Shown here: positions 1-45,616 of the stretch, piece after piece | How positions within the stretch are numbered: the stretch's first letter is position 1 | Layout of the letters: every line of letters starts with the position of its first letter | NCBI GenBank assembly: GCA_947473325.1 | Contig: CANJEJ010000001.1 | Coordinates: forward strand, 15,255-79,254 | Source of the DNA: Alphaproteobacteria bacterium | GTDB taxonomy: Bacteria; Pseudomonadota; Alphaproteobacteria; SHVP01 | Length of the DNA stretch: 64,000 nucleotides | Direction: 5' to 3' | Position numbers and translations under genes: made by a program | Notes under the pieces: generated by a model | The model's database searches: none | What the model saw: the letters and a program-made list of their open reading frames with translations, nothing else | What the model was told of the DNA's origin: nothing

Positions 1-56
1 AGCCAGCGCGCAAGGTCATCGTGGTGCCGAACCGCATCGTCAACATTGTGGTCTAG
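1..56 (+). CDS. leuS: C-terminal end of leucyl-tRNA synthetase (partial; gene starts upstream of window)
   Basis: Reading from nt 3 gives PARKVIVVPNRIVNIVV, then TAG at 54-56. This resembles the conserved LeuRS C-terminal tail, and leuS normally precedes lptE-holA. Only 17 aa are visible. Confidence 0.45.
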   Translation, partial: PARKVIVVPNRIVNIVV

Positions 57-70
57 CGGCCGCGGCGACC

Positions 71-541
71 CTAGCGTTTCACCGGTTCGAGGCCCAGGAC
101 ACGATCGAGCGACAGCGCGCCCGGCCCGCGCGTAAGCAGGAACAGGAGCGGCACCGCCCACATCAGGTGCTCGTTCCAGGCGTCGGGATAGACGAACACC
201 TCGATCACCAGTGTCATCGCCAGCAGCGGCAGCGCGGCGAGGCGCGTCAGCAGGCCGGCGAAGAGCAGCAGCGGAGCGCCGAGTTCCACTGCCGTTCCAA
301 GCACCGCCGCGAGTTCCGGCGGCAGCAGCGGCAATTTGTATTCGTCGCGGAACAGCAGCAGCGCCAGATCCCAGCTTTCGATCTTGAGCAGGCCGGAGCG
401 GAAGAACACGCCACCCACCGCGATCCGCATCAGGAGCTGCAAGACCGAAAGCGGCAGCGCGGATTCGAGTCGCGCCTGCACGGCGGCGAGGCGCGTGCGC
501 CAGGAGGCAGGGGCTGACAACTCCAGCGCGGTGGTGCTCAT
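71..541 (-). CDS. DoxX family membrane protein (last gene of the DUF2282/DUF692/DUF2063 operon)
   Basis: Track ORF 71..811 trimmed to the ATG at 539-541 (MSTTALELS...). Hydrophobic helices and LMRIAVGGVFFRSGLLK are typical of DoxX. ATGA start/stop overlap with the upstream gene. Confidence 0.8.
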   Translation of the reverse strand: MSTTALELSAPASWRTRLAAVQARLESALPLSVLQLLMRIAVGGVFFRSGLLKIESWDLALLLFRDEYKLPLLPPELAAVLGTAVELGAPLLLFAGLLTRLAALPLLAMTLVIEVFVYPDAWNEHLMWAVPLLFLLTRGPGALSLDRVLGLEPVKR

Positions 542-1320
542 GATCGGGTTCCTTCCAGCGTGAAGTCGGTGACGCAGCCTTCCGCCAGCACGGTGGCCAG
601 GTTGGCGGCGAGATCGAAGCCGTCTCCGGCGCTTTCCGCGGCAACGCCCAGTGAGGAGCCGCCGGCGAGGGCGGCACGGAAGGCAAACTCGACCGGCGAG
701 AGGTCGCGCGCTTCCACACCATCGGCTGCACGACGGATGAGCAGGCGGGTGGGTCCGGCATTCGCCATGTCGATCTGGGTGTCGAGCCGTCCCTCGCGCG
801 CCACGCGCCACAGCACGGCGGCTGGCAAGTTGGACGACACCAGTTGCGCAGCGGGATTCCAGAGAAATACCAGATCAGCGGCCTGTTCCGTCGGTATCGC
901 CGCGAGTCGAGCCGGGTCGATCGGATCCTGCAGCGGCGCATCGGCCACAGCGAAAGCGGCGTTTTCGATGCGCGCCACGTCCGGCAGCCAGGGATAGGCG
1001 TGCGCCGGTCCGAAGCGCGCAAGAAAGTCCGGCAGCGCGTCGCCATAGCGCGCCACGCGCGGATCGGCGGGCGGCGACGCCGCAATGAACTGTGCCGCCG
1101 CGAAGGCAAAGAAGCCATCGCCCACCAGCTTGACCACCGCAGGAAAGCGGCTCCGCAGCACGGCGGTCAGGCTGGTGCGGACATGGCGCTGATGGATCAG
1201 CAGGCGCTGTGGCACCACGAGCAGGCCCGCCGGTGGCACGACGCCCTCCGGCGTGGCGATGCCGAGGCGGATCTGCGCGGCGAGCGCCGCCTGCAGGTCA
1301 GGCAGCGCGGACATCGTCAT
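538..1320 (-). CDS. DUF2063-type protein (partner of DUF692 enzyme; MbnC/BufC-like position)
   Basis: Track ORF 538..1401 trimmed to MTMSALPDLQ (ATG 1318-1320). It overlaps the end of the DUF692 gene by 23 nt, the usual DUF692-DUF2063 pairing. Confidence 0.75.
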   Translation of the reverse strand: MTMSALPDLQAALAAQIRLGIATPEGVVPPAGLLVVPQRLLIHQRHVRTSLTAVLRSRFPAVVKLVGDGFFAFAAAQFIAASPPADPRVARYGDALPDFLARFGPAHAYPWLPDVARIENAAFAVADAPLQDPIDPARLAAIPTEQAADLVFLWNPAAQLVSSNLPAAVLWRVAREGRLDTQIDMANAGPTRLLIRRAADGVEARDLSPVEFAFRAALAGGSSLGVAAESAGDGFDLAANLATVLAEGCVTDFTLEGTRS

Positions 1321-2185
1321 TGGCTGCCGCGAAGGGGGCCGCGATGGCGTCGGCGCGCGCCGCTTCGTCCTGCAGCACACGGAAGTCGGGAATGTCGGCA
1401 TCCCATTCGATCAGCGTCGGGCAGGGACCGAACAGGCTCAGCGCCTCGGCATAGAGGTCCCACACCGCGCCATCGACGGCGGTACTGTGGGTGTCGATCA
1501 GCACGGAGTCACCGTCTGCGTCCTCGCGCACGAAGCCGGCGAGATGGATTTCACCGATCGCGGCCGCCGGCAGGCGGCGCAACCAGGCGCGCGCGTCACC
1601 GCCCAGGTTGTGCGCCGAGACATGGCTGTTATTAAGGTCGCAGAGCAGGCCGCAGCCCGAGCGGGCCACCAGTTCCGCGAGGAAGTCCGCCTCCGCCATG
1701 CCAGGGTCGGCAAAGGCAAGGTAGGCGGACGGATTCTCAACCAGCAGGCGCCGGCCGAGCGCCGTCTGCACGGCATCAACATGACGCACGACGGTGCACA
1801 GCGCTTCGTCGGTGTAGGGCAGCGGTAGAAGATCGTTGAGAAAGGCGCCGCCGGCGCCACACCAGGCAAGGTGCTCGGACACCGCAAACGGTTCGATGCG
1901 AAGGACGAGATCCTTGAGGCGCGCGAGATGATCGTCGTCAAGCGGCTCGGCACCGCCGAGCGACAAGCCGACGCCGTGGAGCGACACCGGATAGTCCTGA
2001 CGTACGCTCCACAGCGCCCTGAAGGCCGGCGTGATGTCGCCCGGCCGGTCCGTCATGTGATTCTCGGCATGCACCTCGAACCACGCAGCGGCAGGATGCG
2101 ACGCAAGCACCAGGTCGATATGTGGCGCGCGCAGGCCGATGCCGGCGCGCGCCACGATCGGGGTATTGGACTTTCCTGGGCTCAC
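1298..2185 (-). CDS. DUF692 (UPF0276) MbnB-like TIM-barrel enzyme
   Basis: 295 aa. GIGLRAPH, FEVHAENHM, SLHGVGLSLG, VSEHLAW, LLVENPS and IGEIHLAGF blocks are characteristic of the DUF692/MbnB family. Confidence 0.85.
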   Translation of the reverse strand: MSPGKSNTPIVARAGIGLRAPHIDLVLASHPAAAWFEVHAENHMTDRPGDITPAFRALWSVRQDYPVSLHGVGLSLGGAEPLDDDHLARLKDLVLRIEPFAVSEHLAWCGAGGAFLNDLLPLPYTDEALCTVVRHVDAVQTALGRRLLVENPSAYLAFADPGMAEADFLAELVARSGCGLLCDLNNSHVSAHNLGGDARAWLRRLPAAAIGEIHLAGFVREDADGDSVLIDTHSTAVDGAVWDLYAEALSLFGPCPTLIEWDADIPDFRVLQDEAARADAIAAPFAAANDDVRAA

Positions 2186-2207
2186 GCCGCGGTTCCCGGT
2201 CGGTCGA

Positions 2208-2480
2208 TCAGGCCTTCTTGGGCGTCATGCTGCCGCCGGTGATGCGTTCGCACATGCCGACGGGGACATAGACCCAGGCCGCCGGGTCGGCATCGCGCCG
2301 TGCCGTGCCGCCGCAGGAATTGTTGCCGGCCGAGGCACAGTCATTCTTGCCGGCCTTCGAGACGCCGTAGCATTTCTCGGCCTTGAATTCGGGGGCCTTT
2401 GCCGGCGCCTGCGCGCTGGCGGCAGCGGGGATGGCGATAGCGGCAGCGAGGGCCGAAGCGACGAGGAAGCGGGTATTCAT
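2208..2480 (-). CDS. DUF2282-type secreted Cys-rich peptide (candidate RiPP precursor, BufA-like)
   Basis: 90 aa. Signal peptide MNTRFLVASALAAAIAIPAAASA, then EKCYGVSKAGKNDCASAGNNSCGG...VPVGMCE with 4 Cys. Lies 22 nt upstream of the DUF692 gene on the same strand. Confidence 0.8.
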   Translation of the reverse strand: MNTRFLVASALAAAIAIPAAASAQAPAKAPEFKAEKCYGVSKAGKNDCASAGNNSCGGTARRDADPAAWVYVPVGMCERITGGSMTPKKA

Positions 2481-2539
2481 GGCGTAAGCTCCAGTTCAGG
2501 GTTCCGAAGGCCGCGCCGCAGCGGGCCTTCGCATCCCTG

Positions 2540-2565
2540 TTCTGTCGCGCCCGCCGCCGGGTTAC
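2540..2565 (-). promoter_or_regulatory. candidate ECF (SigF-type) promoter upstream of the DUF2282 gene
   Basis: The minus strand reads GTAACC-N16-AGAA about 60 nt upstream of the ATG at 2480. From memory, Caulobacter SigF-dependent promoters are GTAACC-N16-CGAA. Confidence 0.3.
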
Positions 2566-2598
2566 TGTCCGTCCGCAAATTTTTTCACCGGCGATGCC

Positions 2599-3174
2599 TT
2601 GACCGATTCCGCGCCCTTTGCCGAGACTCCGCAGGACCAGCAATGGCGCCGGCTGATGGCTGCTGCGCAGAATGGCGATCAGGTGGCCTATGCGGCCCTG
2701 CTGCGCGATCTCCTCCCCTATTTGCGCGCCATGGCCCGGCGGCGGTTCCGCCAGGCCGAAGAAGCGGAAGATGCCGTGCAGGACATCCTGCTGACGCTGC
2801 ACACCGTGCGGCACAGCTATGACCCGGCGCGGCCGTTCCGGCCGTGGATCGTCACCATCGCGCGGCGGCGCATCGCCGATCGCATGGTCAGGCTGGGCCG
2901 CCGCGCCGCCAATGAAATGCTGTCGGCGCTGGATGACGATGAAACCTTTTCGGTGCCCGTGACGAACAGCGATATGGAGACGGCCGTGCAGGCGCGCGAG
3001 GCCGTCGCGGCCGTGGCGGATCTGCCGCCCGGCCAGCGTCAGGCGTTCGAGTTGCTGAAGGTGCAGGGTCTGTCGCTGAACGAGGCGTCAGCGGCGACGG
3101 GCCTGTCAGTTACCGCGTTGAAGGTTGCGACCCACCGGGCCGTGCTGGCGCTGCGCCGGCGGCTGGGCAATTGA
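2599..3174 (+). CDS. ECF-type RNA polymerase sigma factor (SigF-like)
   Basis: 191 aa, TTG start. Region 2 (DAVQDILLTLHTVRHSYD, FRPWIVTIARRRIAD) and region 4 HTH (QRQAFELLKVQGLSLNEASAATGLSVTALKVATHRA). Confidence 0.9.
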   Translation: MTDSAPFAETPQDQQWRRLMAAAQNGDQVAYAALLRDLLPYLRAMARRRFRQAEEAEDAVQDILLTLHTVRHSYDPARPFRPWIVTIARRRIADRMVRLGRRAANEMLSALDDDETFSVPVTNSDMETAVQAREAVAAVADLPPGQRQAFELLKVQGLSLNEASAATGLSVTALKVATHRAVLALRRRLGN

Positions 3175-3190
3175 GTTGGAGCGGAAGGGA

Positions 3191-3853
3191 ATGCGTACGG
3201 AAGACCTGATCGAGCAGATGGCCGCGACGGCAGAACCCGTCCGCCGCCTGCCCGCGCCTTCCGTCCTCGCCCTGGCCTGGCTGGTCCTGGCGGTGGCGCT
3301 GGTCTCGCTTGTCGTGTTGTGGCAGGGCTGGCGGCCCAACCTGGCGGGTCAGCTGGCAGAGGTCGAAGTTCTGGTTCCCTGGCTCGCCTCGATCCTAACC
3401 GGCGTGCTTGCGGTGCTGGCGGCCACCCATCTGGCGGCGCCGGACCGCTCTGCGAGGTGGCGCTGGGTGCCCCTGCCCGCCTTCGCGCTGTGGGTGGCGA
3501 CGCTGGGCGGCGGCTGCTTTGCCGAATGGCGGGAGTCGGGCGATCTGACGATGGCGCCCGGAATGGATTGCCTGCCCGAGATCGCGATTATCAGCCTGCC
3601 GCTGTCGCTGCTTCTGTTCGGGCTGCTGCGCCATGCCGCGGCGATCCGGCCGGTTTCGACCGCCGTGACCGGTGCGCTGGCGGTGGCGGCCCTGGCGTCG
3701 GCCGGGATGGAGCTGTTTCACCACGCCGATGGCGCCTTGTCGGTGCTGGTCTGGCACGCCGGCGCGGTGACGCTGCTGGTCACCGGATTTGCGCTCGTCG
3801 GGCGTCCGCTCTTTCGGCTGATCGCCATTCGGAAACCGCGCTTCGCCCGCTGA
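3191..3853 (+). CDS. nrsF: NrsF-family (DUF1109) membrane anti-sigma factor
   Basis: Track ORF 3125..3853 trimmed to MRTEDLIEQMAATAEPVRRLP (ATG 3191). Multiple TM helices, two Cys (GGGCFAEW, GMDCLPE), directly downstream of the ECF sigma gene. Confidence 0.8.
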   Translation: MRTEDLIEQMAATAEPVRRLPAPSVLALAWLVLAVALVSLVVLWQGWRPNLAGQLAEVEVLVPWLASILTGVLAVLAATHLAAPDRSARWRWVPLPAFALWVATLGGGCFAEWRESGDLTMAPGMDCLPEIAIISLPLSLLLFGLLRHAAAIRPVSTAVTGALAVAALASAGMELFHHADGALSVLVWHAGAVTLLVTGFALVGRPLFRLIAIRKPRFAR

Positions 3854-3869
3854 CGCCGGGCTGTCCGCT

Positions 3870-4433
3870 GTGGCAGACTCGGCGCGCATGATTTCCCTGT
3901 TCCGCCCCCCCGACCGCCGCCGTTTCCTGCGCCTTGCCAGCCTTGGCGGCGCCATGGGACTGCTCGCCGCCTGTGGTTTCCAGCCGATGTACGGACGTCA
4001 GGAGGGGCGCCGGCCTGGCTTCGACGCCTTTTCCGAAGTGGCCATTGCGCCCATCCCCGAACGGGTCGGGCAGCTTATCCGCAACCGCCTGCTCGACCAG
4101 GTGAATCCCTATGGCGAGCCCGGCGCGGCGCGCTACACGCTGGGCGTCACCTTCGCGCGCAACAAGGTGGCGGTGGCGGTCGATCGCGACCAGACCATTA
4201 CGCGCTACAACATGACGCTCGTGGCGTCCTACGTCCTGACCGAGAACGCGAGTCGCTCCATTGTGACGCGGGGCTCCACACGCTCGGTCGCCGCCTTCAA
4301 TATCGTCGGGTCGGAGTTTGCCAACATCGCGGCGGAGCATGATGCCGAGGAACGTACCGCGGTGTCGGTGGCCGATGACATCGCGTTGCGCCTTGGTGCC
4401 TATTTCGCCGATCCGAACCGGCGCGCGGGCTGA
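3870..4433 (+). CDS. lptE: LPS-assembly lipoprotein LptE
   Basis: Lipobox LLAACG after a twin-Arg-like leader, LptE-like body, position immediately before holA. GTG start at 3870; alternative ATG at 3888. Confidence 0.75.
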   Translation: MADSARMISLFRPPDRRRFLRLASLGGAMGLLAACGFQPMYGRQEGRRPGFDAFSEVAIAPIPERVGQLIRNRLLDQVNPYGEPGAARYTLGVTFARNKVAVAVDRDQTITRYNMTLVASYVLTENASRSIVTRGSTRSVAAFNIVGSEFANIAAEHDAEERTAVSVADDIALRLGAYFADPNRRAG

Positions 4434-4436
4434 TCC

Positions 4437-5477
4437 GTGCAGCTGAAAGGCCGCCAGATCGAGGCTTTCGTCCGCCGGCCAGAGCCGGGCATCCGCGCCG
4501 TCCTGGTGTATGGGCCTGATGCCGGCTTGGTCAGTGAACGCGTCAGCCTGCTGGTCAAAAGCGTGCCCGGGGCCGCTGAGGATCCTTTTCGGTATGCGGA
4601 GCTAAGCCCTTCGAGTCTGAAGGACGGCGCTGCGCTGAATGACGAAGCGGCCGCGCTATCTCTCACTGGGGGCCGCCGCGTCATTGTCGTGCGGGGGGCT
4701 ACGGATGGGCTCGCCGACAGTTTCGCCGAGCTTGTCGATGGTCAGGTGCCGGGCGACAGTCTGGTAGTCGTCGAGGCCGGCGATTTGACCGGCACCTCCT
4801 CGTTGAGGAAGATGTTCGAGAAGGGCGAGACCGGTGCCGCCCTGCCCTGCTACGCCGATTCAGAGGAAGACCGCATTGGCCTGATCCGCGCCATGGTCGA
4901 GGATGCCGGGCAGCGGATTGAATCTGCCGCGCTGGACTATCTCGGCAGCTCCCTGCCCGCCGACCGGCTGGTGATGCGCCGCGAGATCGAGAAGCTGCTG
5001 CTCTACAAGAGCAGCGAAAAGGGCACGATCAGTATCGAGGAAGCCGAGACTGTGGTTGGCGACGCCGCGGCCGTATCGCTGGACGACGTCGCCTATGCGA
5101 CGACCGGTGGCAATCCACCGAGCCTAGACCTGGCGGTGCAACGGGCGCTTGCCGATGGCAACGACCCGATTGCGATCATCAGCGCCGTGCGCCGCCATCT
5201 TCACCGCGTGCAACTTGCATCCGCCGCCTATCAAAACGGGGCCAGCCCGCAGATCGCCATGGACCGGCTGCGGCCACCCGTCTTCTTCAAGCGCAAGCCC
5301 GAGTTCCAGGCACAGTTACAGCGTTGGTCGCCCCCGCAAATCGATCAGGCGCTGGAGCTGCTGACGGAAGCTGAGTTCGACTGCAAGACGACTGGCCTGC
5401 CTTCGGAGGCCGTGTGCAGCCGGGCGTTGCTTCGGATTGCCAATGCCGGCCGGCGGACTTCAGCCCGGCGAAATTGA
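4437..5477 (+). CDS. holA: DNA polymerase III subunit delta
   Basis: 346 aa. N-terminus QLKGRQIEAFVRRPEPGIRAVLVYGPDAGLV is typical of HolA; conserved lptE-holA order. Confidence 0.85.
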   Translation: MQLKGRQIEAFVRRPEPGIRAVLVYGPDAGLVSERVSLLVKSVPGAAEDPFRYAELSPSSLKDGAALNDEAAALSLTGGRRVIVVRGATDGLADSFAELVDGQVPGDSLVVVEAGDLTGTSSLRKMFEKGETGAALPCYADSEEDRIGLIRAMVEDAGQRIESAALDYLGSSLPADRLVMRREIEKLLLYKSSEKGTISIEEAETVVGDAAAVSLDDVAYATTGGNPPSLDLAVQRALADGNDPIAIISAVRRHLHRVQLASAAYQNGASPQIAMDRLRPPVFFKRKPEFQAQLQRWSPPQIDQALELLTEAEFDCKTTGLPSEAVCSRALLRIANAGRRTSARRN

Positions 5478-11652: not shown

Positions 11653-11763
11653 GGAACGCTCCTGCTGGCACGGGGTTGGGTTTCCACTATAGCAGCACAT
11701 CGGTGACAACATGGGTGCCGGTACCCTCGCATGATAGGGTGCCGCCGCGTTCCGGAGCCCGTC

Positions 11764-13803
<2,040 letters not shown>

Positions 13804-14468
13804 CTAGCGGAGCCCCTCGCGCAGCCGCTCGCGATTGCGCACGGCATCGGCCAAGTACGGATCAAGCCGGATTGCTTCATCGAAATCTGCGATAGCAATG
13901 TCGTTGCGCCGCAACCCAGCGCTTGCCATGCCGCGGCCATTCAAAAGCTTGGGCACGCCATAGAGTTGGAGGAATCGGGGATCGGATCGATGTATTTCGG
14001 ACCATATGATCCCATCGTCAAAATCGATCCAAGCACGCTGGTAGTCGCGCTTTTCGAGCCAAGCTTCGCCCCTCTCGAAGTAGGCCGCTGCGCTTCGTTT
14101 GTCGGTCTTGAGAACGATGTCCAGCACCTCGATCGCCGCATCGACACCTCCCGATTCCCGCCTGATGCCGGCCGCCATGGCGTGATAGTAAGAATCGCGG
14201 GGATACAGCTTGATCGCTTCAAAGGCATCGGCAAATGCGCGTTGCCACTCGCGCTTGGCGCGAAACGCTGCGCTGCGCTGCGCCAGAAGTACAGCTCCGC
14301 CATCGCATTCGGACCATATTCGTTTGCCTCGATCACCCGCGTGCAATCATTGATTCGCACATCGGGTACACGGGTCAAATCCTGGCAGTTCGCTCGGTCA
14401 GATTCCGGCTGCGCGGCAACAGGCGTTGCAAAAATGAAGATCAAGACCGTCAGCCACGGAAGTCGCAT
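13804..14468 (-). pseudogene. secreted TPR-repeat protein with reading frame broken at a pentanucleotide repeat
   Basis: Signal peptide plus the first TPR half are in frame A (14468 downward, ...NAMAELYFWRSAAQ). The remaining TPRs are in frame B (...AAFRAKREWQRAFADAFEAIKLYP... to 13804). The switch is at (GCAGC)3; removing one unit gives a continuous ...ELYFWRSAAFRAKREWQRAF... Confidence 0.6.
14266..14280. repeat. (CGCTG)x3 tandem pentanucleotide repeat at the frameshift point
   Basis: Plus strand cgctgcgctgcgctg, followed by a partial cgc. Confidence 0.9.
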
Positions 14469-14542
14469 GTGCCGTCCCTCTCGACCAGTCTAACGGGTTG
14501 CTGCGCCACCGGCGACGGACTCTCTGGCATACTGGTGCCTAC

Positions 14543-15001
14543 ATGACCCCCGCTCCCCAGCTCTCCCTCCACACCCCCGTCGGCGACGTCACGCTGAGCG
14601 AGGACGGCGGGGCCATCGTGTCGGTCGACTGGGGCTGGGCGGCGGTGCAGACTGAAACGGCGCTGCTGAAGCGGGCGCGCAAGCAGCTGCAGGATTATTT
14701 CGACGGCAAGCGGCGGGATTTCGACCTGCCGCTCAACCCGCATGGCACCGCGTTGCAGAAGAAGATCTGGGCCGGCATGGTCGCCATTCCTTATGGCGCG
14801 ACGCTGGCCTATGGCGAGCTTGGCAAGAAGGTTGGGGCCGGCGCGCGTGTCGTCGGCAATGCCTGTGGCCGCAATCCGTTGCCCATCCTTGTGCCCTGCC
14901 ACCGCGTGCTGGCTGCCCATGGGAAGCTTGGCTTCTATTCTGGCGAAGGCGGGGTCGATACCAAGGTCGCCCTGCTGCGGCTGGAAGGCGCGCTGCTGTA
15001 G
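14543..15001 (+). CDS. ogt: Methylated-DNA-protein-cysteine methyltransferase (Ogt/MGMT)
   Basis: Trimmed to MTPAPQLSLH; active site LVPCHRVL, NPLPI. Confidence 0.9.
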   Translation: MTPAPQLSLHTPVGDVTLSEDGGAIVSVDWGWAAVQTETALLKRARKQLQDYFDGKRRDFDLPLNPHGTALQKKIWAGMVAIPYGATLAYGELGKKVGAGARVVGNACGRNPLPILVPCHRVLAAHGKLGFYSGEGGVDTKVALLRLEGALL

Positions 15002-15070
15002 CGCGCCGTGACAAGCCGCAGGCTCCCCCGCTAGAGTCCCCGCCCCACCTGCAGCGAACGGGAGGATGCG

Positions 15071-15766
15071 ATGGCTGGCGAGATGATCACCCTCAAGGGC
15101 AAGGACGGAAGCTTTGGTGCCTATCTGGCGAAGCCCGCGGGCGGCAAGGGCCCCGGCGTCGTCTGCATCCAGGAAATCTTCGGCGTGAACGACTGGATGC
15201 GCGCCATCGCCGACGATTTCGCCGCCGCCGGTTTCGTCGCCCTGGTGCCGGACCTCTTCTGGCGCATCGAGCCCGGCATCCAGATCAATGGCGAGGGCGA
15301 AAAGGAATTCGGCCAGGCCTTCGGCCTCTATGGCAAGTTCAACCCCGACACCGGCATCCAGGACGTGCAGACCGCGATCACCCATCTGCGCAAGATGGCC
15401 GGCGTGAACGGAAAGGTCGGCACCACCGGATACTGCCTGGGTGGTTTCCTCGCCTATCTGTCCGCCTGCCGCACCGATGCGGATGCCAATGTTGGGTATT
15501 ACGGCGTCGGCATCGATTCGAAGCTCGACGAAGCGAAGGCGATCAGGACGCCGTTGATGCTGCATATCGCGACCAAGGACAAGTTCGTCACGCCGGAAGC
15601 GCAGCAGAAGGTACGCGACGGGCTGAAGACGAATCCGCATGTCACGATCCATGACTATCCGGAAGACCATGCCTTCGCGCGCAAGGGCGGCCATTCCTAT
15701 GTGAAGGCTTCGGCCGACACGGCGAACAAGCGCACGCTCGATTTCTTCAACAAGCATCTGGGGTAA
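15071..15766 (+). CDS. Dienelactone hydrolase family protein
   Basis: 231 aa. GVVCIQEIFGVN, nucleophile region GTTGYCLGG, HDYPEDHAF; typical carboxymethylenebutenolidase-like layout. Confidence 0.85.
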   Translation: MAGEMITLKGKDGSFGAYLAKPAGGKGPGVVCIQEIFGVNDWMRAIADDFAAAGFVALVPDLFWRIEPGIQINGEGEKEFGQAFGLYGKFNPDTGIQDVQTAITHLRKMAGVNGKVGTTGYCLGGFLAYLSACRTDADANVGYYGVGIDSKLDEAKAIRTPLMLHIATKDKFVTPEAQQKVRDGLKTNPHVTIHDYPEDHAFARKGGHSYVKASADTANKRTLDFFNKHLG

Positions 15767-15834
15767 GTGCTGGGACCGATCGGCCTGCCGACCGGCGACA
15801 CTTCCCCGTTACAACGAACAAGGAATTCTCTCCA

Positions 15835-16800
15835 ATGGTCAAAGCGATCCGCGCCTCCAAGCCCGGCGGTCTCGATGTCATGTCCTGGGATGATGTGGAG
15901 GTCGGCGCGCCCGGCAAGGGCGAGGTGCGGCTGAAGCAGACCGCCATCGGCGTCAACTTCATTGACACCTATCACCGCGCCGGCACCTATCCCGGCAGCG
16001 TCTATCCCGTGGTACTCGGTGTCGAGGGCGCGGGCGTGATCGAGGCGGTCGGCGACGGCGTCACCGGTTTCCGGAAAGGCGACCGCGTCTGCTATGCGCT
16101 CGCCCGCGGCTCCTATGCCGAGGAACGGCTGATCCCGGAGACAGCGCTGATGACGATTCCGGAGGGCGTCAGCGATGACGAGGCCGCGGCCGGCATCACC
16201 AAGGGCGTCACCGTCCATCACCTGTTCACCCGCGTGCGCCCGGTGCAGAAGGGCGACTTCGTGCTCTATCACGCCGCCGCAGGCGGTGTCGGCCTCATCG
16301 CCTGCCAATGGGCGAGGGCCATCGGCGTCAAGCTGATCGGCACGGCCTCGAGCGACGACAAGGCGAAGCTGGCGAAGGACCATGGCGCGGCCGAAGTCAT
16401 CGTCTACACGCGCGAGAATTTCGTCGACCGGGTGAAGGCGATCACCGACGGCGCGGGCGTCGTGCTCGCCATCGACGGAGTCGGCAAGTCGACGGCGAAG
16501 GATTCGGCCAAGTGCCTCGCCACCTATGGCACGCTTTGCACGATCGGCCAGGCGAGCGGCCCGTCCGACCTCAGCGTCGCCGACCTGCCCGCCTCGACCA
16601 ATTTCACCAAGGGATCGATCGCCACGCTGGTGCCGCGCCCGGTGGAACTGCGCGCCTCGGCGGCGGCGTTCTTCGACATGGTGCGGCGTGGCGCGGTGAA
16701 GATCGACATCAACCACCGCTTCGCCCTGAAGGATGCTGCCAAGGCCCATGCGGCGCTTGAAGGCCGCCAGACCACCGGCTCCATCATCCTGAAACCCTGA
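15835..16800 (+). CDS. NADPH:quinone oxidoreductase (zeta-crystallin/MDR family), paralogue 1
   Basis: 321 aa. IGVNFIDTYHRAGTYP, AAAGGVG dinucleotide motif, C-terminal GRQTTGSIILKP. Confidence 0.9.
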   Translation: MVKAIRASKPGGLDVMSWDDVEVGAPGKGEVRLKQTAIGVNFIDTYHRAGTYPGSVYPVVLGVEGAGVIEAVGDGVTGFRKGDRVCYALARGSYAEERLIPETALMTIPEGVSDDEAAAGITKGVTVHHLFTRVRPVQKGDFVLYHAAAGGVGLIACQWARAIGVKLIGTASSDDKAKLAKDHGAAEVIVYTRENFVDRVKAITDGAGVVLAIDGVGKSTAKDSAKCLATYGTLCTIGQASGPSDLSVADLPASTNFTKGSIATLVPRPVELRASAAAFFDMVRRGAVKIDINHRFALKDAAKAHAALEGRQTTGSIILKP

Positions 16801-16807
16801 GGTTGCC

Positions 16808-17296
16808 GTGGCCGGCTATGTCGACAAGGTTCTGCTCGCGGACGAACAGGTGGTCCATCGCGCCGCCGTGCACTGGGTGGTCTATGCCGGCGGCATCGCC
16901 TGGGTGGTGCTGGCGCTGATTTCCTTCATCGCCTCGTCGTCCTATGGCGCGCGGCTTGCCGTGACTGTCGGCAGCCAAGCCTATCACCCCCTGACGTGGC
17001 TGGGCTATGTGCTGCTCGTGCTCGGCACGTTGCGCCTGATGGGTGCGGCGCTCGAACAATGGACGACGGAACTTGCCATCACCTCGAAGCGCACCATCGC
17101 CAAGGTCGGCTTCATCCGCCGCGAGACCTGGGAGATCAATGCCTCCAAGATCGAAAGCGTCGAGGTCGACCAGTCAGTGTTCGGCCGCCTGCTCGGCTAC
17201 GGCACCGTCGTCGTCAAGGGCACCGGCGGCGGCACCACGCCGATGAAGCTGATCGCCGACCCCATCGCCTTCCGCAACCACATCACAGCACGATAG
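16808..17296 (+). CDS. membrane protein with bacterial PH (YdbS/YdbT-like) domain
   Basis: 162 aa, GTG start. Two TM helices, then TSKRTIAKVGFIRRETWEINASKIESVEVDQSVFGRLLGYGTVVVKGTGG. Confidence 0.75.
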   Translation: MAGYVDKVLLADEQVVHRAAVHWVVYAGGIAWVVLALISFIASSSYGARLAVTVGSQAYHPLTWLGYVLLVLGTLRLMGAALEQWTTELAITSKRTIAKVGFIRRETWEINASKIESVEVDQSVFGRLLGYGTVVVKGTGGGTTPMKLIADPIAFRNHITAR

Positions 17297-17300
17297 AATT

Positions 17301-17712
17301 CCCTCTCCCTGCTTGCAGGGGGAGGGCTAGGGAGGGGGTCTTGCAGCAGTCACCCCGTGCACGGCAACTCCGCCAATCTATGACCGAGGCTGAAACACGG
17401 CTCTGGTTTGCCCTGCGCCGCCGCCAGCTGGACGGCTTCTATTTTCGTCGGCAATTTCCTGTGGGTCCGTACATCGCCGACTTTGCCTGCACGGAAGCGC
17501 GCGTCATCGTGGAAGCAGATGGCGGCCAGCATGCAGAACGTCAGAATCATGATGCTACCCGCACGCAGTTTCTGAACGATCGCGGCTATCGCGTGCTGCG
17601 CTTCTGGAACAATGATGTGCTGACGAATATCGACGGTGTCCTGACGATTGTCCGCAACACCCTGTTGCAGGCGAACCCCCTCCCCAACCCTCCCCTGCAA
17701 GCAGGGAGAGGG
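17301..17712 (+). mobile_element. DUF559 endonuclease cassette bounded by 37-38 nt imperfect inverted repeats (REP-like hairpins)
   Basis: Left repeat 17301-17338 ccctctccctgcttgcagggggagggctagggaggggg. Right repeat 17676-17712 is its reverse complement with 2 mismatches and 1 indel. The interior looks visibly lower in GC than its flanks. Confidence 0.5.
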
Positions 17713-17718
17713 AGAAAG
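17341..17718 (+). CDS. DUF559 (Vsr-like) endonuclease-domain protein; no stop codon of its own before the next gene
   Basis: A TTG at 17341 gives LQQSPRARQLRQSMTEAETRLWFALRRRQLDGFYFRRQFPVGPYIADFAC...VIVEADGGQH...RVLRFWNNDV. The frame continues without a stop into the following qor paralogue. Confidence 0.6.
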
Positions 17719-18708
17719 ATGTCTGACATGACCGCTACCCACGCGCTGCGCTTCCACAAGACCGGCGGGCCCGAAGTGCTGCAATGGGACCGCATCGAGG
17801 TGCCGGCGCCCAGGCCGGGCGAGGTGCTGCTGCACCACACCGCCATCGGCGTCAATTTCCTCGACACCTATCACCGCGCGGGCACGCATCACGTGCAGCT
17901 GCCGCTGCCGGGCATCACCGGCTCGGAGGGCGTCGGCATCGTCGAAGCCGTCGGTGCCGGCGTCACGTCGGTGACGCCCGGGCAGCGCGCCGTCTATCCG
18001 CTCACCGCTGGTGCCTATGCGGAACGCCGGATCATCCCGGAAACGGATCTCGCCACGGTGCCCGACGGCCTTGCCGACGACGCCCTCGCCGCCACCTTCA
18101 TGAAAGGATTGACCGCCGGACACCTGCTGTTCGACATCGCGCGGGTGAAGCCGGGCGATGTGCTGCTGATGCATGCGGCGGCCGGCGGCGTCGGCCTGCT
18201 GCTCGGCCAATGGGCCAAGGCGCTTGGCTGCACCGTCATCGGCACTGCCAGCACGCCAGCCAAGGCGGAACTCGCCCGCGCGAACGGCTATGCCCATGTC
18301 ATCGACTACACGCGCGAGGATTTCGTCGCGCGGGTGAAGGACATCACCGCGGGTCGCGGCGTGCGCGCCGTGTTCGACGGTGTCGGCGAGACCACCTTCC
18401 TCGGCTCGCTGCAATGCGCGAAGGCACCCGACAGCGTGGTGGCGAGCTTCGGTCTAGCTTCCGGTCCGCTGCCGCGCTTCGGCTTCGCCGACCTTCCGCC
18501 GTCGGTCTTTGTCACCCGCGCAACGGTGAAGACGATCACCGCTGACCGTCCCGCCTACCTGCGCCACGCCGCGCGCTTCCTTGGCGCGCTGGGCGACGGA
18601 ACGTTGCGGCCGGTGATCGGCGGCCGCTACACGTTGCGCGATGGCGCCGAGGCGCACCGCGCTCTCGAATCGCGGCGCACCACCGGCTCGCTGGTCCTGT
18701 TGCCGTAA
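17719..18708 (+). CDS. NADPH:quinone oxidoreductase family, paralogue 2
   Basis: MSDMTATHALRFHKTGGPEVL, preceded by GGAGAAAG; IGVNFLDTYHRAG, AAAGGVG, SRRTTGSLVLLP. Confidence 0.85.
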   Translation: MSDMTATHALRFHKTGGPEVLQWDRIEVPAPRPGEVLLHHTAIGVNFLDTYHRAGTHHVQLPLPGITGSEGVGIVEAVGAGVTSVTPGQRAVYPLTAGAYAERRIIPETDLATVPDGLADDALAATFMKGLTAGHLLFDIARVKPGDVLLMHAAAGGVGLLLGQWAKALGCTVIGTASTPAKAELARANGYAHVIDYTREDFVARVKDITAGRGVRAVFDGVGETTFLGSLQCAKAPDSVVASFGLASGPLPRFGFADLPPSVFVTRATVKTITADRPAYLRHAARFLGALGDGTLRPVIGGRYTLRDGAEAHRALESRRTTGSLVLLP

Positions 18709-18798
18709 AGGGAAGCCTTGGCAAACCCCCGTTTTATTCGGCTTTACCGCTGCAAAGCGGTTCCGTGCTAGGAGTCCGCCCCTGAGTCGGGAGGGGGC

Positions 18799-19767
18799 AT
18801 GCCGAAAGCGGCCGTACTGCACAAAGCGGGCGGACCGGACAGTTTTGTCTGGGAAGATGTGCGCGTGGGCGATCCAGGTCCCGACCAGGTGCGGCTGCGC
18901 ACGACCGCCGTGGGCCTCAACCTCGTCGAGACCATGTTTCGGTCGGGAGCCATCCCGGTCACCTATCCGGCAATCCTGGGTTTTGAAGGCGTCGGCATTG
19001 TTGAGTCTGTCGCGCCCGGCGTGACAGAGGTCAAGCCCGGCGATCGCATCGCCTATGTTTCCCCTCCCATCGGCGCCTATGCCGAGGCGCGGCTGCTGCC
19101 CGCGGCCGATTGCGTTCCCCTGCCGGACGGGATTTCCGATGAAACGGCGGCGGCCGGCTATCTCAAGGGCATGACAGCCTATTACCTCGTTCACCTGTCC
19201 ACGCGGGTCAAGCCGGGCGATGTTGTCCTGGTCCATGCTGCCGCCGGCGGCGTCGGCTTGCTGCTGTGTCAATGGGCCAAGCATCTCGGAGCCACGGTAA
19301 TCGGGACGGTGGGCAGCGATGAGAAAGCGGCACTTGCCCGTGCCCATGGCTGTGACCATGCGGTTGTCTACACGCGCGATGACTTCCTGCCTGTCGTTAG
19401 GGATGTAACCAACGGACGGGGCGTCCGGGCGGTCTATGAGTCCGTCGGACGCGACACATTCGACCGCTCAGCCGCATCGCTGGCGCTCGAGGGCATCCTC
19501 GTCGCCTATGGCGCGGCCTCGGGCCAACGTACGCCCGAACAGACCGCGAAATTTCCCACAGCCCGATACCTCATCGGTGCGACACTGCAGGACTATACCG
19601 CGACACGGGCCGAGCTTTTGGCCGCCGCCTCCGGCTTTTTCGACGTCGTTGCCAGCGGCGCCGTCCGGGTTACCATCGGGCAGAAAGTGCCCCTGCGGAA
19701 TGTGGGCGAAGCCCACGCCGCACTCGAGAGCCGGCGTACGACCGGCTCTACCGTCTTGACCGTCTGA
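18799..19767 (+). CDS. NADPH:quinone oxidoreductase family, paralogue 3
   Basis: 322 aa. MPKAAVLHKAGGPDSF, AAAGGVG, SRRTTGSTVLTV. Confidence 0.9.
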   Translation: MPKAAVLHKAGGPDSFVWEDVRVGDPGPDQVRLRTTAVGLNLVETMFRSGAIPVTYPAILGFEGVGIVESVAPGVTEVKPGDRIAYVSPPIGAYAEARLLPAADCVPLPDGISDETAAAGYLKGMTAYYLVHLSTRVKPGDVVLVHAAAGGVGLLLCQWAKHLGATVIGTVGSDEKAALARAHGCDHAVVYTRDDFLPVVRDVTNGRGVRAVYESVGRDTFDRSAASLALEGILVAYGAASGQRTPEQTAKFPTARYLIGATLQDYTATRAELLAAASGFFDVVASGAVRVTIGQKVPLRNVGEAHAALESRRTTGSTVLTV

Positions 19768-19791
19768 CCAGGGATCAGGAGTTCCGCGTCC

Positions 19792-20763
19792 ATGACCAAA
19801 GCCATTCGCATTCACAAGACCGGCGGCCCCGACGTCCTGCAGTGGGACGACATTTCGGTGGGCAAACCCGGCAAGGGCGAGGCGCTCGTGCGCCAGACCG
19901 CGGCGGGCCTCAACTACATCGACACCTATCAGCGCTCGGGCCTCTATCCCGTGCCGCTCCCCACCGTGCTTGGCAGCGAAGGCGCCGGCGTCGTGGAAGC
20001 GGTTGGTGAAGGCGTCACAGATGTGAAGGTGGGCGACCGGGTCGCCTATCACTCCGCGCTCGGCGCCTATGCCGAACACCGCATCATGCCGGCCTGGCTG
20101 CTCGTACAGGTGCCCGCCGAGATCGACGACAAGACCGCCGCCTCGATGATGCTGAAGGGCTGCACAGTGCAGTACCTGCTGAAGCGCACCTATCCCGTGA
20201 AGAAGGGCGACACGATCCTGTTCCACGCCGCCGCCGGTGGCGTCGGCCTGATCGCCGGACAATGGGCAAAGCATCTTGGCGCCACCGTGATCGGCACCGT
20301 CGGCAGCGAGGAAAAGGCGAAGCTCGCCAGGCAGAACGGCTATGACCACGTCATCAACTACAGCACGGAAGACTTCGTCGCGCGGGTGAAGGAAATCACC
20401 GGCGGCAAGGGCCTGCCGGTTGTTTATGACTCGGTCGGCAAGGACACCTTCCTGAAGTCGCTCGATTGCCTGCAGCGTCGCGGCATGATGGTGACCTTTG
20501 GCCAGTCTTCGGGTGCGGTGGAACCGATCCAGACCGGTCTGTTGTCAGCCAAAGGCTCGCTCTACATGACGCGGCCTACATTGGGCCACTACACCGCGAA
20601 CCGGGCCGAAGTGCTGGAAACGGCCAACGACCTGTTCGACGTGGTGAAGCGCGGCATCGTGAAGATCTCCGTCAACCAGACCTATGCCTTGAAGGATGCC
20701 GCGCAGGCGCATCGCGACCTCGAAAGCCGCAAGACCACCGGCACCACCGTCCTCACCATCTGA
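19792..20763 (+). CDS. NADPH:quinone oxidoreductase family, paralogue 4 (most QorA-like)
   Basis: 323 aa. AGGAG RBS, MTKAIRIHKTGGPDVLQWDD, GLNYIDTYQRSGLYP, AAAGGVG, SRKTTGTTVLTI. Confidence 0.9.
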   Translation: MTKAIRIHKTGGPDVLQWDDISVGKPGKGEALVRQTAAGLNYIDTYQRSGLYPVPLPTVLGSEGAGVVEAVGEGVTDVKVGDRVAYHSALGAYAEHRIMPAWLLVQVPAEIDDKTAASMMLKGCTVQYLLKRTYPVKKGDTILFHAAAGGVGLIAGQWAKHLGATVIGTVGSEEKAKLARQNGYDHVINYSTEDFVARVKEITGGKGLPVVYDSVGKDTFLKSLDCLQRRGMMVTFGQSSGAVEPIQTGLLSAKGSLYMTRPTLGHYTANRAEVLETANDLFDVVKRGIVKISVNQTYALKDAAQAHRDLESRKTTGTTVLTI

Positions 20764-20792
20764 CGGCAGCGCCAGGAACGGACAGCAGCATC

Positions 20793-22754
20793 ATGGTGAA
20801 CGGAGGCGTCCCGGGACCGCTCACCTGGCTCGGTCGCGAATTCCGCGACCGGCAGATGGAGGAGACCTTCCTCAGCGCCGCCTGGCCGCAGAGCCGCCGG
20901 CTGGGGCGGATCACCGCCTATCTCGCCTTCGGCGCCGCCATCGCCGGCGATATCGGCACTGCGCTTGACGACGCGGTCCATATCTCCCTGCCGGTCTTCA
21001 TCGCGACCCGGGTGGTGGCGCTCCTTGCGTTCTTCGTGTTGCTCCACGCCTTCATGCGGCCCGCGGCGCGCACCTACCAGGGACTGGCCGCGATTTTCGC
21101 CGCCCTGTCTCTGACGCTGGTGTGGCTGTCGCCGACGATCTTCGGTACCGCCACGCTGTCGGCACAACTGGCGGCGATGGTGGGCGCGATGCTGATCATT
21201 TTCGTCGTCCCGAAGCCGTTCCTCAGCACGATGGTGACGGTCCACGGCCTGATCGTACCCGCCTTCATCCTGGTCCTGCTGGCGCCGTCGCAAACCTTCG
21301 GCGGCAATCACCCCTTCAGCGTCTTCGCCTTCCTCGCCGCGATTGCGCTGACCGGCCTCTCCCTGATCCGGCGACTCAACGAATCCGCGCGCATCGGCTT
21401 TGCGACGCGCACGTCGCTGACCAGCGAACGCGACACCATCCAGCGGGCGGCGGAGGAGCAGACGCGTATGTTGGAACGCGTGGCCGCACAAGAGAGCGAG
21501 CTGCAGTCGAAGAACGCGCTGATGGAAAGCATCTTCGCGCATGCCGACCAGGGAATCGTCGTGATCGACAGCGAAAGCCGCGTGGTCGCCTGGAACGAGC
21601 GCTATGTCGAGATGTACGGCCTTTCACCGGAATTCATCCAGGCCGGCATCAGCCTGAGCGATCTCACGGCGCATTTCATTCAAACGGGCCTCTTCAGCCC
21701 GGACGCGCTGACGCCGGAAGCGCTGCTCATGGTGCAGAAGCCACAGGGCGGCCAGAGCTTTGAGCTGTCGCTGCCCGATGGCCGCTTTTTCGACATCCGT
21801 CGCAGCGCCATGCCCGATGGCGGCTATGTCTCGACGACGACCGATATCACCGGGCGGCGCCAGATCGAAGCGGAACTCGCCAGCCGCAACCAGTTTGTTG
21901 AAAGCGTGCTGCGCAGCATCTCGCAGGGCATCGTCGCCTTCGACCGGGAGAAGCAGCTCGTTGCCTGGAACGACCAGTATCGCGAGTTCTTCGACCTGCC
22001 GCCCGAGCTGCTGCGTCCGGGCGTCAAGCGGCGCACGATCATCTCCTATCTCACCGAGCGCGGCTATTTCGGCCGGCGCAATGTCGACGGCGACGCGCGC
22101 AAGCAGATCGACCTACCGCTGCCGGACCAACGCTTCGAGATCCGCCTGCCGGACGGCCGCGTGCTCGACATCCGGCGCGAGCCGCTTCCCGATGGCGGCA
22201 TCGTGTCCACCTACACCGACATCACCGAGCAGAAGCGGGCAGAGGACACGATTCGCCGCCTCGCCCTGCTCGACCCACTCACCGGACTCGCCAACCGCGC
22301 ACGCTTCGACCAGCGGCTGGCGGAAGCCATCAGCCATGCCAGCGAGAATCAGCGGCGCGTGGCCCTACTACTGATCGATCTTGACCACTTCAAGCCGGTC
22401 AACGACACGCACGGACATTCGGTGGGTGACGTTGTCCTGCGCCGCGTCGGCCGCATCCTGGCGCAGACCGTCCGCGACATCGACACGGCGGCACGCATTG
22501 GCGGCGACGAGTTTGCCGTCATCCTCACCCACCTGCCGGATACGTCGGTTGCCGAACGAATCGCGCAGCGCATCATCGAAACCGTCCAGCTGCCGATCCC
22601 GATCGATGAGCTGACGGTGGCGATCGGCGCGAGCGTCGGCATCGCCATTGCGCCTGACAACGGTTCGACACCCGAGACCCTGCGCAACCGCGCCGACGCT
22701 GCGCTGTACCTCGCCAAGGGCGCCGGCCGCGGCGTCTGGCGGCGGGCGGCCTGA
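20793..22754 (+). CDS. membrane-anchored PAS-PAS-GGDEF diguanylate cyclase, paralogue 1
   Basis: Track ORF 20466..22754 trimmed to MVNGGVPGPL (ATG 20793, after the qor4 stop). Multi-TM N-terminus, two PAS-like units ending DGGYVSTTTDIT / DGGIVSTYTDIT, GGDEF (RIGGDEFAV). Confidence 0.85.
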   Translation: MVNGGVPGPLTWLGREFRDRQMEETFLSAAWPQSRRLGRITAYLAFGAAIAGDIGTALDDAVHISLPVFIATRVVALLAFFVLLHAFMRPAARTYQGLAAIFAALSLTLVWLSPTIFGTATLSAQLAAMVGAMLIIFVVPKPFLSTMVTVHGLIVPAFILVLLAPSQTFGGNHPFSVFAFLAAIALTGLSLIRRLNESARIGFATRTSLTSERDTIQRAAEEQTRMLERVAAQESELQSKNALMESIFAHADQGIVVIDSESRVVAWNERYVEMYGLSPEFIQAGISLSDLTAHFIQTGLFSPDALTPEALLMVQKPQGGQSFELSLPDGRFFDIRRSAMPDGGYVSTTTDITGRRQIEAELASRNQFVESVLRSISQGIVAFDREKQLVAWNDQYREFFDLPPELLRPGVKRRTIISYLTERGYFGRRNVDGDARKQIDLPLPDQRFEIRLPDGRVLDIRREPLPDGGIVSTYTDITEQKRAEDTIRRLALLDPLTGLANRARFDQRLAEAISHASENQRRVALLLIDLDHFKPVNDTHGHSVGDVVLRRVGRILAQTVRDIDTAARIGGDEFAVILTHLPDTSVAERIAQRIIETVQLPIPIDELTVAIGASVGIAIAPDNGSTPETLRNRADAALYLAKGAGRGVWRRAA

Positions 22755-22761
22755 GCACGCA

Positions 22762-44929: not shown

Positions 44930-45616
44930 ATGCTGCGGCTGCACGGGACAAAGATTTCGCCCTACTACTCGCGGATCTGGCTGCAGGCGCAGCTCAAGGA
45001 CCTGCCACTGGAACTGGTCGAGGCCGGCCCGGACGATCCGACTCCGGACGCGATGAAGGCGCGCAACCCGCTCGGCAAGATTCCCTTCCTCGAGCATGAC
45101 AATCGGCTCTTCTTCGAATCGGAAGTGATCTGCGAATATCTCGAGGATTGCTTCCCTGAAAAGCCGCTGCGCCCCGCCAGCCCCGAGGACCGCGCCAAGG
45201 CACGCCTCATCACCCGCACGCTCGATCTCTATGTCATGCCGCCGCTGCACGCGCTGACGCCGCAGATCCGCGCGCCGCAGCGCGACGAGACGCTGATCAA
45301 GCTGCTCTTCACCCGCATCGGAGCCGGGCTTGACGTGCTGGCGACGTTCCTCGACCGCGGTCCCTACGCGATGGGCGCGGCGCCAAGCCTGCCGGACTGC
45401 GCGCTCGCCGCCGGCCTCTGGTATCTGCCCTGCATCAGCGCGCGCTTCCGGCCGGACGAGGACGTGCGCGAAGGCCATGGCGCGGCGACGGCCTATTGGC
45501 ACCACATCCGATCGGCGCCGGTCTTCATGCCGACCCTGAACGAGATGACGACCGGCTACGTCGCCTTCCGGGCCGCGTTGGAAGCGCGCCTCGCCGCCGC
45601 GCGGCAGAACGCCTAG
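44930..45616 (+). CDS. Glutathione S-transferase family protein
   Basis: Trimmed to MLRLHGTKISPYYSRIW; N-terminal thioredoxin-like domain and C-terminal helical domain. Confidence 0.8.
   Translation: MLRLHGTKISPYYSRIWLQAQLKDLPLELVEAGPDDPTPDAMKARNPLGKIPFLEHDNRLFFESEVICEYLEDCFPEKPLRPASPEDRAKARLITRTLDLYVMPPLHALTPQIRAPQRDETLIKLLFTRIGAGLDVLATFLDRGPYAMGAAPSLPDCALAAGLWYLPCISARFRPDEDVREGHGAATAYWHHIRSAPVFMPTLNEMTTGYVAFRAALEARLAAARQNA

Follow-up and report, generated by a model that had tools for sequence, protein, structure and literature searches.

A predicted Buf1-type bufferin gene cluster and its SigF/NrsF control module in an uncultured alphaproteobacterium

Introduction

Bufferins, which were recognised only recently, are a very common means by which bacteria cope with excess copper. 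In Caulobacter vibrioides, the buf1ABCD operon combines genes for a DUF2282 protein, an MNIO enzyme, a DUF2063 protein and a DoxX protein (PMC11626156). Its peptide product, bufferin 1, is exported by the Sec pathway, carries 5-thiooxazoles formed from its two central cysteines and a disulfide between the outer ones, and binds copper in a 1:1 ratio, a description backed by mass spectrometry, nuclear magnetic resonance, in vitro reconstitution and copper affinities (PMC11626156). Here we describe a locus of the same type in a 64,000-nucleotide (nt) stretch of DNA from an uncultured alphaproteobacterium (GTDB lineage SHVP01; contig CANJEJ010000001.1, positions 15,255 to 79,254), referred to below as the window, whose own coordinates are used throughout. 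We read this locus as a complete set of Buf1-type genes for making a bufferin (captophorin), controlled by a SigF/NrsF module of its own, a reading to which we assign a probability of about 0.8.

Later work upheld the 5-thiooxazole assignment in bufferins and found it to hold for oxazolin and its relatives as well; the group is now known as captophorins. Surveys count Buf1 precursors in the thousands and put captophorin precursors at more than 21,000; sigma factor and NrsF genes were found in Buf1 clusters and not in Buf2 clusters, and the resulting six-gene layout is a published major Buf1 cluster type, present in thousands of genomes. In Caulobacter, the SigF promoter motif was defined by 5’ rapid amplification of cDNA ends and promoter deletions as GTAACC-N16-CGAA, with transcription starting at -61, and two conserved periplasmic cysteines of NrsF (numbered C131 and C181) are needed to hold SigF inactive. 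Operons with the same four genes, induced by metal stress, are also known as the gig (gold-induced genes) operons of Cupriavidus metallidurans and as homologues in Legionella and Bordetella; their regulation varies by host (BvgAS in Bordetella, for example), and the likeness drawn here is one of description, not of sequence.

Results

Open reading frames (ORFs) and gene junctions were read from the ORF list and the minus-strand sequence of the window. Four consecutive genes lie on the minus strand: bufA (2480..2208), encoding a 90-amino-acid (aa) bufferin-1 precursor of the DUF2282/BufA1 family; bufB (2185..1298), encoding a 295-aa MNIO (DUF692) oxidase from a GTG start; bufC (1320..538), encoding a 260-aa partner protein of PME type 1, with DUF2063 and RRE-like parts; and bufD (541..71), encoding a 156-aa DoxX-family membrane protein. 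A gap of 22 nt separates the bufA stop (2208) from the bufB GTG (2185), the end of bufB (1298) overlaps the bufC ATG (1320) by 23 nt, and the bufC stop and bufD start share a common ATGA at 541..538 (a 4-nt overlap), the same coordinates and junctions as in the original prediction for this locus. A second in-frame ATG of bufC, at 1314, is the start chosen in public gene calls; it yields a 258-aa product with a 17-nt bufB overlap. On the plus strand, divergent from bufA, are a sigF-like gene for a 191-aa extracytoplasmic function (ECF) sigma factor with a TTG start (2599..3174) and an nrsF-like gene for a 220-aa multi-pass membrane anti-sigma factor (3191..3853). These genes extend the system to 3853; the original prediction, which had placed it at 71-2480, identified the four buf genes correctly but left out the divergent pair and the promoter described below. 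All six ORFs of the module are intact and their junctions are coupled.

The profile searches that the original prediction had proposed for the four families all gave scores above the Pfam gathering thresholds: BufA matched PF10048 (DUF2282; 77.1 bits vs. a cutoff of 22.4, E = 9.9e-22, 52 of 53 profile positions covered), BufB matched MbnB_TglH_ChrH (PF05114; E = 7.2e-95), BufC matched PF09836 (DUF2063; E = 1.4e-16) and BufD matched PF07681 (DoxX; E = 8.3e-16). Among 80 relatives from GTDB genomes, the bufA-bufB-bufC order was kept in 78-79 and bufD was present in about 62. Since all four matches exceed their gathering scores and the gene order is kept in relatives, the cluster is not a chance assembly. 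Public contigs with the same genes carry the precomputed labels BufA1, MbnB_TglH_ChrH, HvfC_N and DoxX. Within the 64-kb window, each of the six genes occurs only once and we saw no buf2-type cluster; an Rfam search of the whole window gave no match, and a sample of about 20 larger ORFs from 12-52 kb contained no other copper-homeostasis genes.

The precursor, BufA (MNTRFLVASALAAAIAIPAAASAQAPAKAPEFKAEKCYGVSKAGKNDCASAGNNSCGGTARRDADPAAWVYVPVGMCERITGGSMTPKKA; the peptide quoted in the original prediction was right), contains four cysteines, C37, C48, C56 and C77, with codons at 2372..2370, 2339..2337, 2315..2313 and 2252..2250 of the minus strand, respectively. These are invariant in 59 BufA homologues that are 57-88% identical to it, as are K36, G39, N46, D47, S55, W69, P73 and G75. 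By inspection of the sequence, which agrees with the signal peptide first proposed for this product, residues 1-23 (codons 2480..2412) form a predicted Sec-type signal peptide with cleavage at ASA|QA: the n-region, MNTR, has one arginine, the h-region consists of 17 residues rich in alanine, leucine and isoleucine, A-S-A occupies positions -3 to -1, and the same inspection revealed no lipobox cysteine and no twin arginine. The predicted core of 67 aa (Q24-A90; 2411..2211) has its cysteines at positions 14, 25, 33 and 54.

We compared this core with Caulobacter BufA1 through the residue numbers in the published text, and not by alignment. The core cysteines of the Caulobacter peptide, at 12, 23, 31 and 52, are shifted by +2 in the window, with identical spacing (11/8/21), and the contexts of the two modified Caulobacter cysteines (D22-C23 and S30-C31) recur as N46-D47-C48 and S55-C56. 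Tyr13, which follows the first Caulobacter cysteine, and Trp44, which opens the second strand, likewise have counterparts at +2. An AlphaFold2 model of BufA (mean predicted local distance difference test score, pLDDT, 71) has a helix at 4-21, strands at 34-38 and 69-73 and a short helix at 77-79 at the last cysteine, the topology of the published Caulobacter BufA1 model, in which a two-stranded sheet is joined by a short helix with the last cysteine; a fold search of the PDB with the BufA model gave nothing below E = 4.6. The two peptides differ in core length (67 residues vs. 68 in Caulobacter) and at Met46 on the sheet face of the Caulobacter peptide, which is a tyrosine in the window.

BufB passed the NCBIfam equivalog model NF050167 (MNIO_BufB, “MNIO family bufferin maturase”; 352.2 bits vs. 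a cutoff of 310), and scored below the cutoffs of the NCBIfam HvfB, ApyH, MbnB and ChrH models. Its closest solved structure is 3BWW (E = 1.4e-30). We assigned the iron ligands of BufB to H70, H105, E150, D183, N186, H214, D231, H233 and E260, all nine of which are invariant in 81 of 81 BufB sequences; they match the ligands seen in the MbnB crystal structure (His54, His90, Glu133, Asp163, Asn166, His192, Asp208, His210 and Glu239) in order and with near-identical spacing, and lie in motifs that HMMER aligns to DUF692/MbnB structures. Together with the cysteine register of BufA and the family assignments, the BufB equivalog match supports the proposal, made in the original prediction, of a bufferin-type locus for a peptide made on the ribosome and modified after translation (RiPP). 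By analogy with Caulobacter, BufB is predicted to convert C48 and C56 of BufA to 5-thiooxazoles. The mature peptide with the predicted modifications, two 5-thiooxazoles and one disulfide, has a calculated monoisotopic mass of 6863.20 Da, vs. 6873.28 Da for the unmodified form, and a change of -8 Da would be expected on the tryptic peptide NDCASAGNNSCGGTAR.

A sequence search of the PDB with BufC gave no real match, and matches came from the fold search alone: with an AlphaFold2 model of mean pLDDT 86, the top Foldseek matches in the PDB were TglI (8HCI_A and 8HI7_A) and NGO1945 (3DEE), each with probability 1.00. These are the reference structures in the literature for partner proteins of the DUF2063-RRE type (PME type 1), and the 260 aa of BufC fit the 250-260-aa length mode of that class. 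In Caulobacter, the DoxX protein is dispensable for both modification and copper protection (PMC11626156).

The sigF-like product matched Sigma70_r2 (E = 1e-13), Sigma70_r4_2 (E = 8e-10) and Sigma70_ECF (E = 1e-9), and its divergent arrangement with bufA is that of Caulobacter buf1 and is also found in relatives. The nrsF-like product matched PF06532 (E = 9.5e-26, 91.3 bits vs. a cutoff of 26.8). Its only cysteines, C109 and C127, lie in one predicted loop and are kept in 10 of 10 aligned homologues, together with an F-H-x-x-D motif near 177-181; they are 18 residues apart, a spacing that differs from that of C131 and C181 in Caulobacter NrsF when the two are compared by published numbering only.

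A GTAACC-N16-AGAA element at 2565..2540 on the minus strand, whose 3’ end lies 59 nt before the bufA ATG, has one mismatch to the Caulobacter SigF motif, and the element stands about 55-60 nt before the start codon in both organisms. We found the motif upstream of bufA in all nine relatives with linked sigF-nrsF genes (at most one mismatch; eight perfect), in 8 of 55 relatives without a neighbouring sigma gene, and in none of the coding control regions. GTAACC was the sole invariant block in an alignment of the intergenic regions, and the AGAA variant is common to the closest relative (BufA 88% identical). The element is thus a predicted SigF promoter of bufABCD, which would place the 5’ end of the bufA transcript near 2533. 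Four other one-mismatch SigF motifs in the window (at 2941, 27840, 34726 and 44364) were dismissed as lying inside ORFs. Another, GTAAGC-N15-CGAA at 2484..2508 on the plus strand, also with one mismatch, faces sigF and could be considered a low-confidence candidate for its promoter; it is kept in 0 of 11 relatives and is probably a chance match. No sigma-70-type promoter was found in 1..4000.

A GC-rich stem-loop at 2531..2505 (minus strand; minimum free energy -26.1 kcal/mol, z = -2.38) begins a few nt past the putative -10 element, where the 5’ end of the bufA mRNA is predicted to lie. A stem-loop occurs at the same place in 12 of 12 SigF-linked loci examined (this one and L014, L015, L017, L019, L029, L033, L035, L054, L073, L087 and L089), with unrelated sequences. 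At the median, the region folds better than about 92% of windows from the same locus (median percentile 0.08), and an alignment of five loci contained two compensatory pairs. The structure may stabilise the mRNA or have a regulatory function; given that the loci lack independence from one another, this evidence is suggestive only.

The six genes are the same as those of Caulobacter buf1ABCD (CCNA_03363-03366) and sigF-nrsF (PMC11626156; PMC3511200), now in a different, uncultured host and inserted between leuS and lptE. All sequence-level features that define Buf1 are present in the locus. Other families with an MNIO enzyme share parts of this logic. The EGKCG captophorins (oxazolin from HvfABCX, fontiphorin, gonophorin and bulbicupramide) also combine an MNIO, a PME type 1 partner and a DoxX-like protein with a Sec-exported precursor, 5-thiooxazoles and copper binding, but the BufA precursor has no EGKCG repeat, and the Hvf models all scored under their cutoffs (HvfA 17 vs. 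95 bits, HvfB 202 vs. 360, HvfC 29 vs. 142 and HvfX 46 vs. 80), so that we rejected an oxazolin-type identity. Buf2 bufferins (BUF_6/12Cys) likewise are Sec-exported thiooxazole copper peptides matured by an MNIO and a DUF2063 protein; they have six or twelve cysteines, no DUF2282 signature, usually no DoxX protein and no sigma or NrsF gene in the cluster, whereas BufA has four cysteines and scored 25.7 bits against the BufA2 model NF050166 (cutoff 60), which sets the locus apart from Buf2. The methanobactin system MbnABC has an enzyme of the same superfamily with the same nine iron ligands, and turns cysteine into a copper ligand by a four-electron oxidation. Its product, however, is an oxazolone-thioamide rather than a 5-thiooxazole, its partner is MbnC rather than a DUF2063 protein, and it uses a short leader and dedicated export machinery for copper acquisition; with a score of 60 bits for BufB against the MbnB model TIGR04159 (cutoff 325) and a DUF2063 partner, a methanobactin identity was also discarded.

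The module (71-3853) lies between the end of leuS (56, plus strand) and lptE (3870-4433), which is followed by holA (4437-5477); 14 nt lie between the bufD end and the convergent leuS stop, and nrsF is followed by lptE after 16 nt. We compared this arrangement in a set of relatives (L087 and L091-L097). The 3.8-kb six-gene module occupies the same position between leuS and lptE in the close relative L087, and on a short contig (L091) lptE is immediately preceded by nrsF, which fits the same insertion, whereas six more distant alphaproteobacteria have leuS, lptE and holA side by side in the same direction. In more distant relatives, the module is found in unrelated contexts and, given these differing surroundings, behaves as a transferable unit. 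The surroundings in the window are an origin-proximal housekeeping region (gidAB, parAB, holA, lptE and leuS, and further on rho, hemH, hemE, aroE, hslU and hisF). Several metagenome contigs, of up to 283 kb, carry an identical BufA. A search of GTDB genomes for exact matches to the 5’ end of bufA gave none, and the nearest genome representative by HolA (90% identity) is an unclassified alphaproteobacterial metagenome-assembled genome.

Elsewhere in the window, three consecutive paralogues of the zinc-type alcohol dehydrogenase/quinone oxidoreductase family lie at 16996-20763 (plus strand), the first of whose ORFs runs through an upstream DUF559 (endonuclease-like) domain, probably a separate small gene merged by the ORF call. 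Two tandem PAS_7-GGDEF diguanylate cyclase genes follow at 20466-24354 (plus strand); the called ORFs overlap at 22648-22754, and their starts are uncertain. A 578-aa ORF at 45613-47349 (minus strand) combines a Fer2 2Fe-2S ferredoxin domain with an adenylate/guanylate cyclase domain, possibly forming a redox-sensing cyclase. At 12328-16749 (minus strand) are three long ORFs (445, 435 and 350 aa) with no Pfam match at E <= 1e-5; they are overlapped by plus-strand ORFs (e.g., 11731-13803), and some may be non-coding shadows in GC-rich DNA.

Discussion

Within this analysis, the assignment of the locus as a Buf1-type bufferin cluster is based on gene content and order, protein families, iron ligands, the cysteine register, the fold of the partner protein, and the promoter motif, which co-occurs with sigF-nrsF. 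Induction, chemistry, export with cleavage, and copper binding we infer from the work in Caulobacter, to which the original prediction referred accurately (PMC11626156). In the model that we propose, periplasmic stress (copper, and possibly other thiol-reactive metals or oxidants) would inactivate the membrane anti-sigma factor NrsF, probably sensed through its two conserved loop cysteines, and the freed ECF sigma factor would direct transcription from GTAACC-N16-AGAA upstream of bufA. In the cytoplasm, the iron enzyme BufB and the RRE-containing BufC would bind the BufA precursor and, with O2, turn C48 and C56 into 5-thiooxazoles, each by a four-electron oxidation. The peptide would then be exported by Sec and cut after Ala23, and the outer C37-C77 disulfide would form; the resulting 67-residue periplasmic peptide would bind one copper through its two thiooxazoles (N2S2) and buffer excess copper, with BufD (DoxX) as a putative accessory membrane protein.

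Several observations weigh against this assignment. BufD scored 45.6 bits against a cutoff of 80 for the NCBIfam HvfX equivalog, NrsF was far under its own NCBIfam equivalog cutoff (31 vs. 300), and the BufA model was only moderately confident (pLDDT 71). The first position of the -10 element is A rather than C (AGAA vs. CGAA in Caulobacter), and no promoter for sigF itself could be established. In addition, the locus comes from an uncultured organism and is described here from its sequence, and SigF/NrsF systems elsewhere answer chromium, cadmium or hypochlorite and not copper specifically, which makes the inducing signal and the metal uncertain. The physiological trigger and the metal involved are the main uncertainty of our reading.

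The same machinery and the same type of product might serve a role other than copper buffering, such as the handling of another thiophilic metal (Cd, Cr, Au or Hg) or of reactive chlorine or oxygen species, or the delivery of copper to cuproenzymes. Known inducers of SigF/NrsF are chromium and cadmium (Caulobacter) and chlorite/hypochlorite (Azospira), gold induces homologous operons in Cupriavidus, and some Buf1 domains are fused to MerC. Moreover, in a relative with about 72% identical BufA (JGI sample 3300047160, contig of P0016), the sigma/bufABCD genes adjoin merR-merT-HMA, with small unknown ORFs in place of NrsF, and in another with BufA identity of about 72% (L089/L090) the module adjoins a DsbD_N/redoxin gene. 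In the sole direct tests, those in Caulobacter, however, bufA reporters answered Cu and not Fe, Zn or Mn, and the peptide took copper from a metal mixture with an affinity that was femtomolar or tighter (PMC11626156); the metal-binding cysteine positions and their flanking residues are the same in BufA of the window. We therefore regard a role other than copper buffering as unlikely.

We see still less room for the idea of a decaying or silent insert, acquired horizontally and by now without expression or function. The module is indeed inserted into an otherwise contiguous leuS-lptE-holA cluster, it is slightly richer in G+C than its neighbours (0.68-0.70 vs. 0.59-0.66), and its -10 element departs from the consensus; yet none of the six ORFs is disrupted, their junctions are coupled, no catalytic ligand and none of the four cysteines is missing, the module, its promoter and its position are shared with a relative whose BufA and BufB are 88% and 76% identical, and an identical BufA occurs in several independent metagenomes, so that decay appears very improbable. 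Older database descriptions would make the locus a membrane or regulatory module instead of a RiPP pathway, since Pfam texts describe DUF2282 as a ‘Predicted integral membrane protein (DUF2282)’ and DUF2063 as a ‘Putative DNA-binding domain’, and JGI labels homologues as ‘uncharacterized membrane protein’. The sole hydrophobic stretch of BufA, however, is the N-terminal signal sequence with its AXA cleavage site, the fold of BufC matches the MNIO partners TglI and NGO1945, BufB and BufC jointly modify BufA in the Caulobacter in vitro reconstitution (PMC11626156), and a newer Pfam release names the families BufA1 and HvfC_N; the membrane or regulatory interpretation is already effectively refuted and hardly credible. 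The Buf1-type bufferin cluster with SigF/NrsF control remains our preferred reading of the locus.

The insertion leaves lptE and holA 16 nt past nrsF, with a convergent operon separating them from leuS. Transcription of these essential genes could therefore partly depend on the stress-responsive SigF unit, and they may be co-transcribed with sigF-nrsF. That the insertion makes lptE/holA transcription partly SigF-stress-dependent, and that the bufA stem-loop is an undescribed control element of SigF-dependent buf operons, is a speculative proposal that we consider rather doubtful.

The locus is an intact, typical example of an already described and very widespread gene set. The rarity ascribed to it in the original prediction was overrated, as later surveys put the number of such clusters in the thousands to tens of thousands, and both Pfam and NCBIfam now name the families. 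As a clean and complete example from an uncultured soil alphaproteobacterium, its value is confirmatory, and alone it opens no new question. It indicates that the six-gene design of Caulobacter recurs intact, moves between genomic contexts as a unit and keeps its SigF promoter, and it yields testable predictions: a cleavage site, the modified residues, exact masses, a promoter and a likely transcription start.

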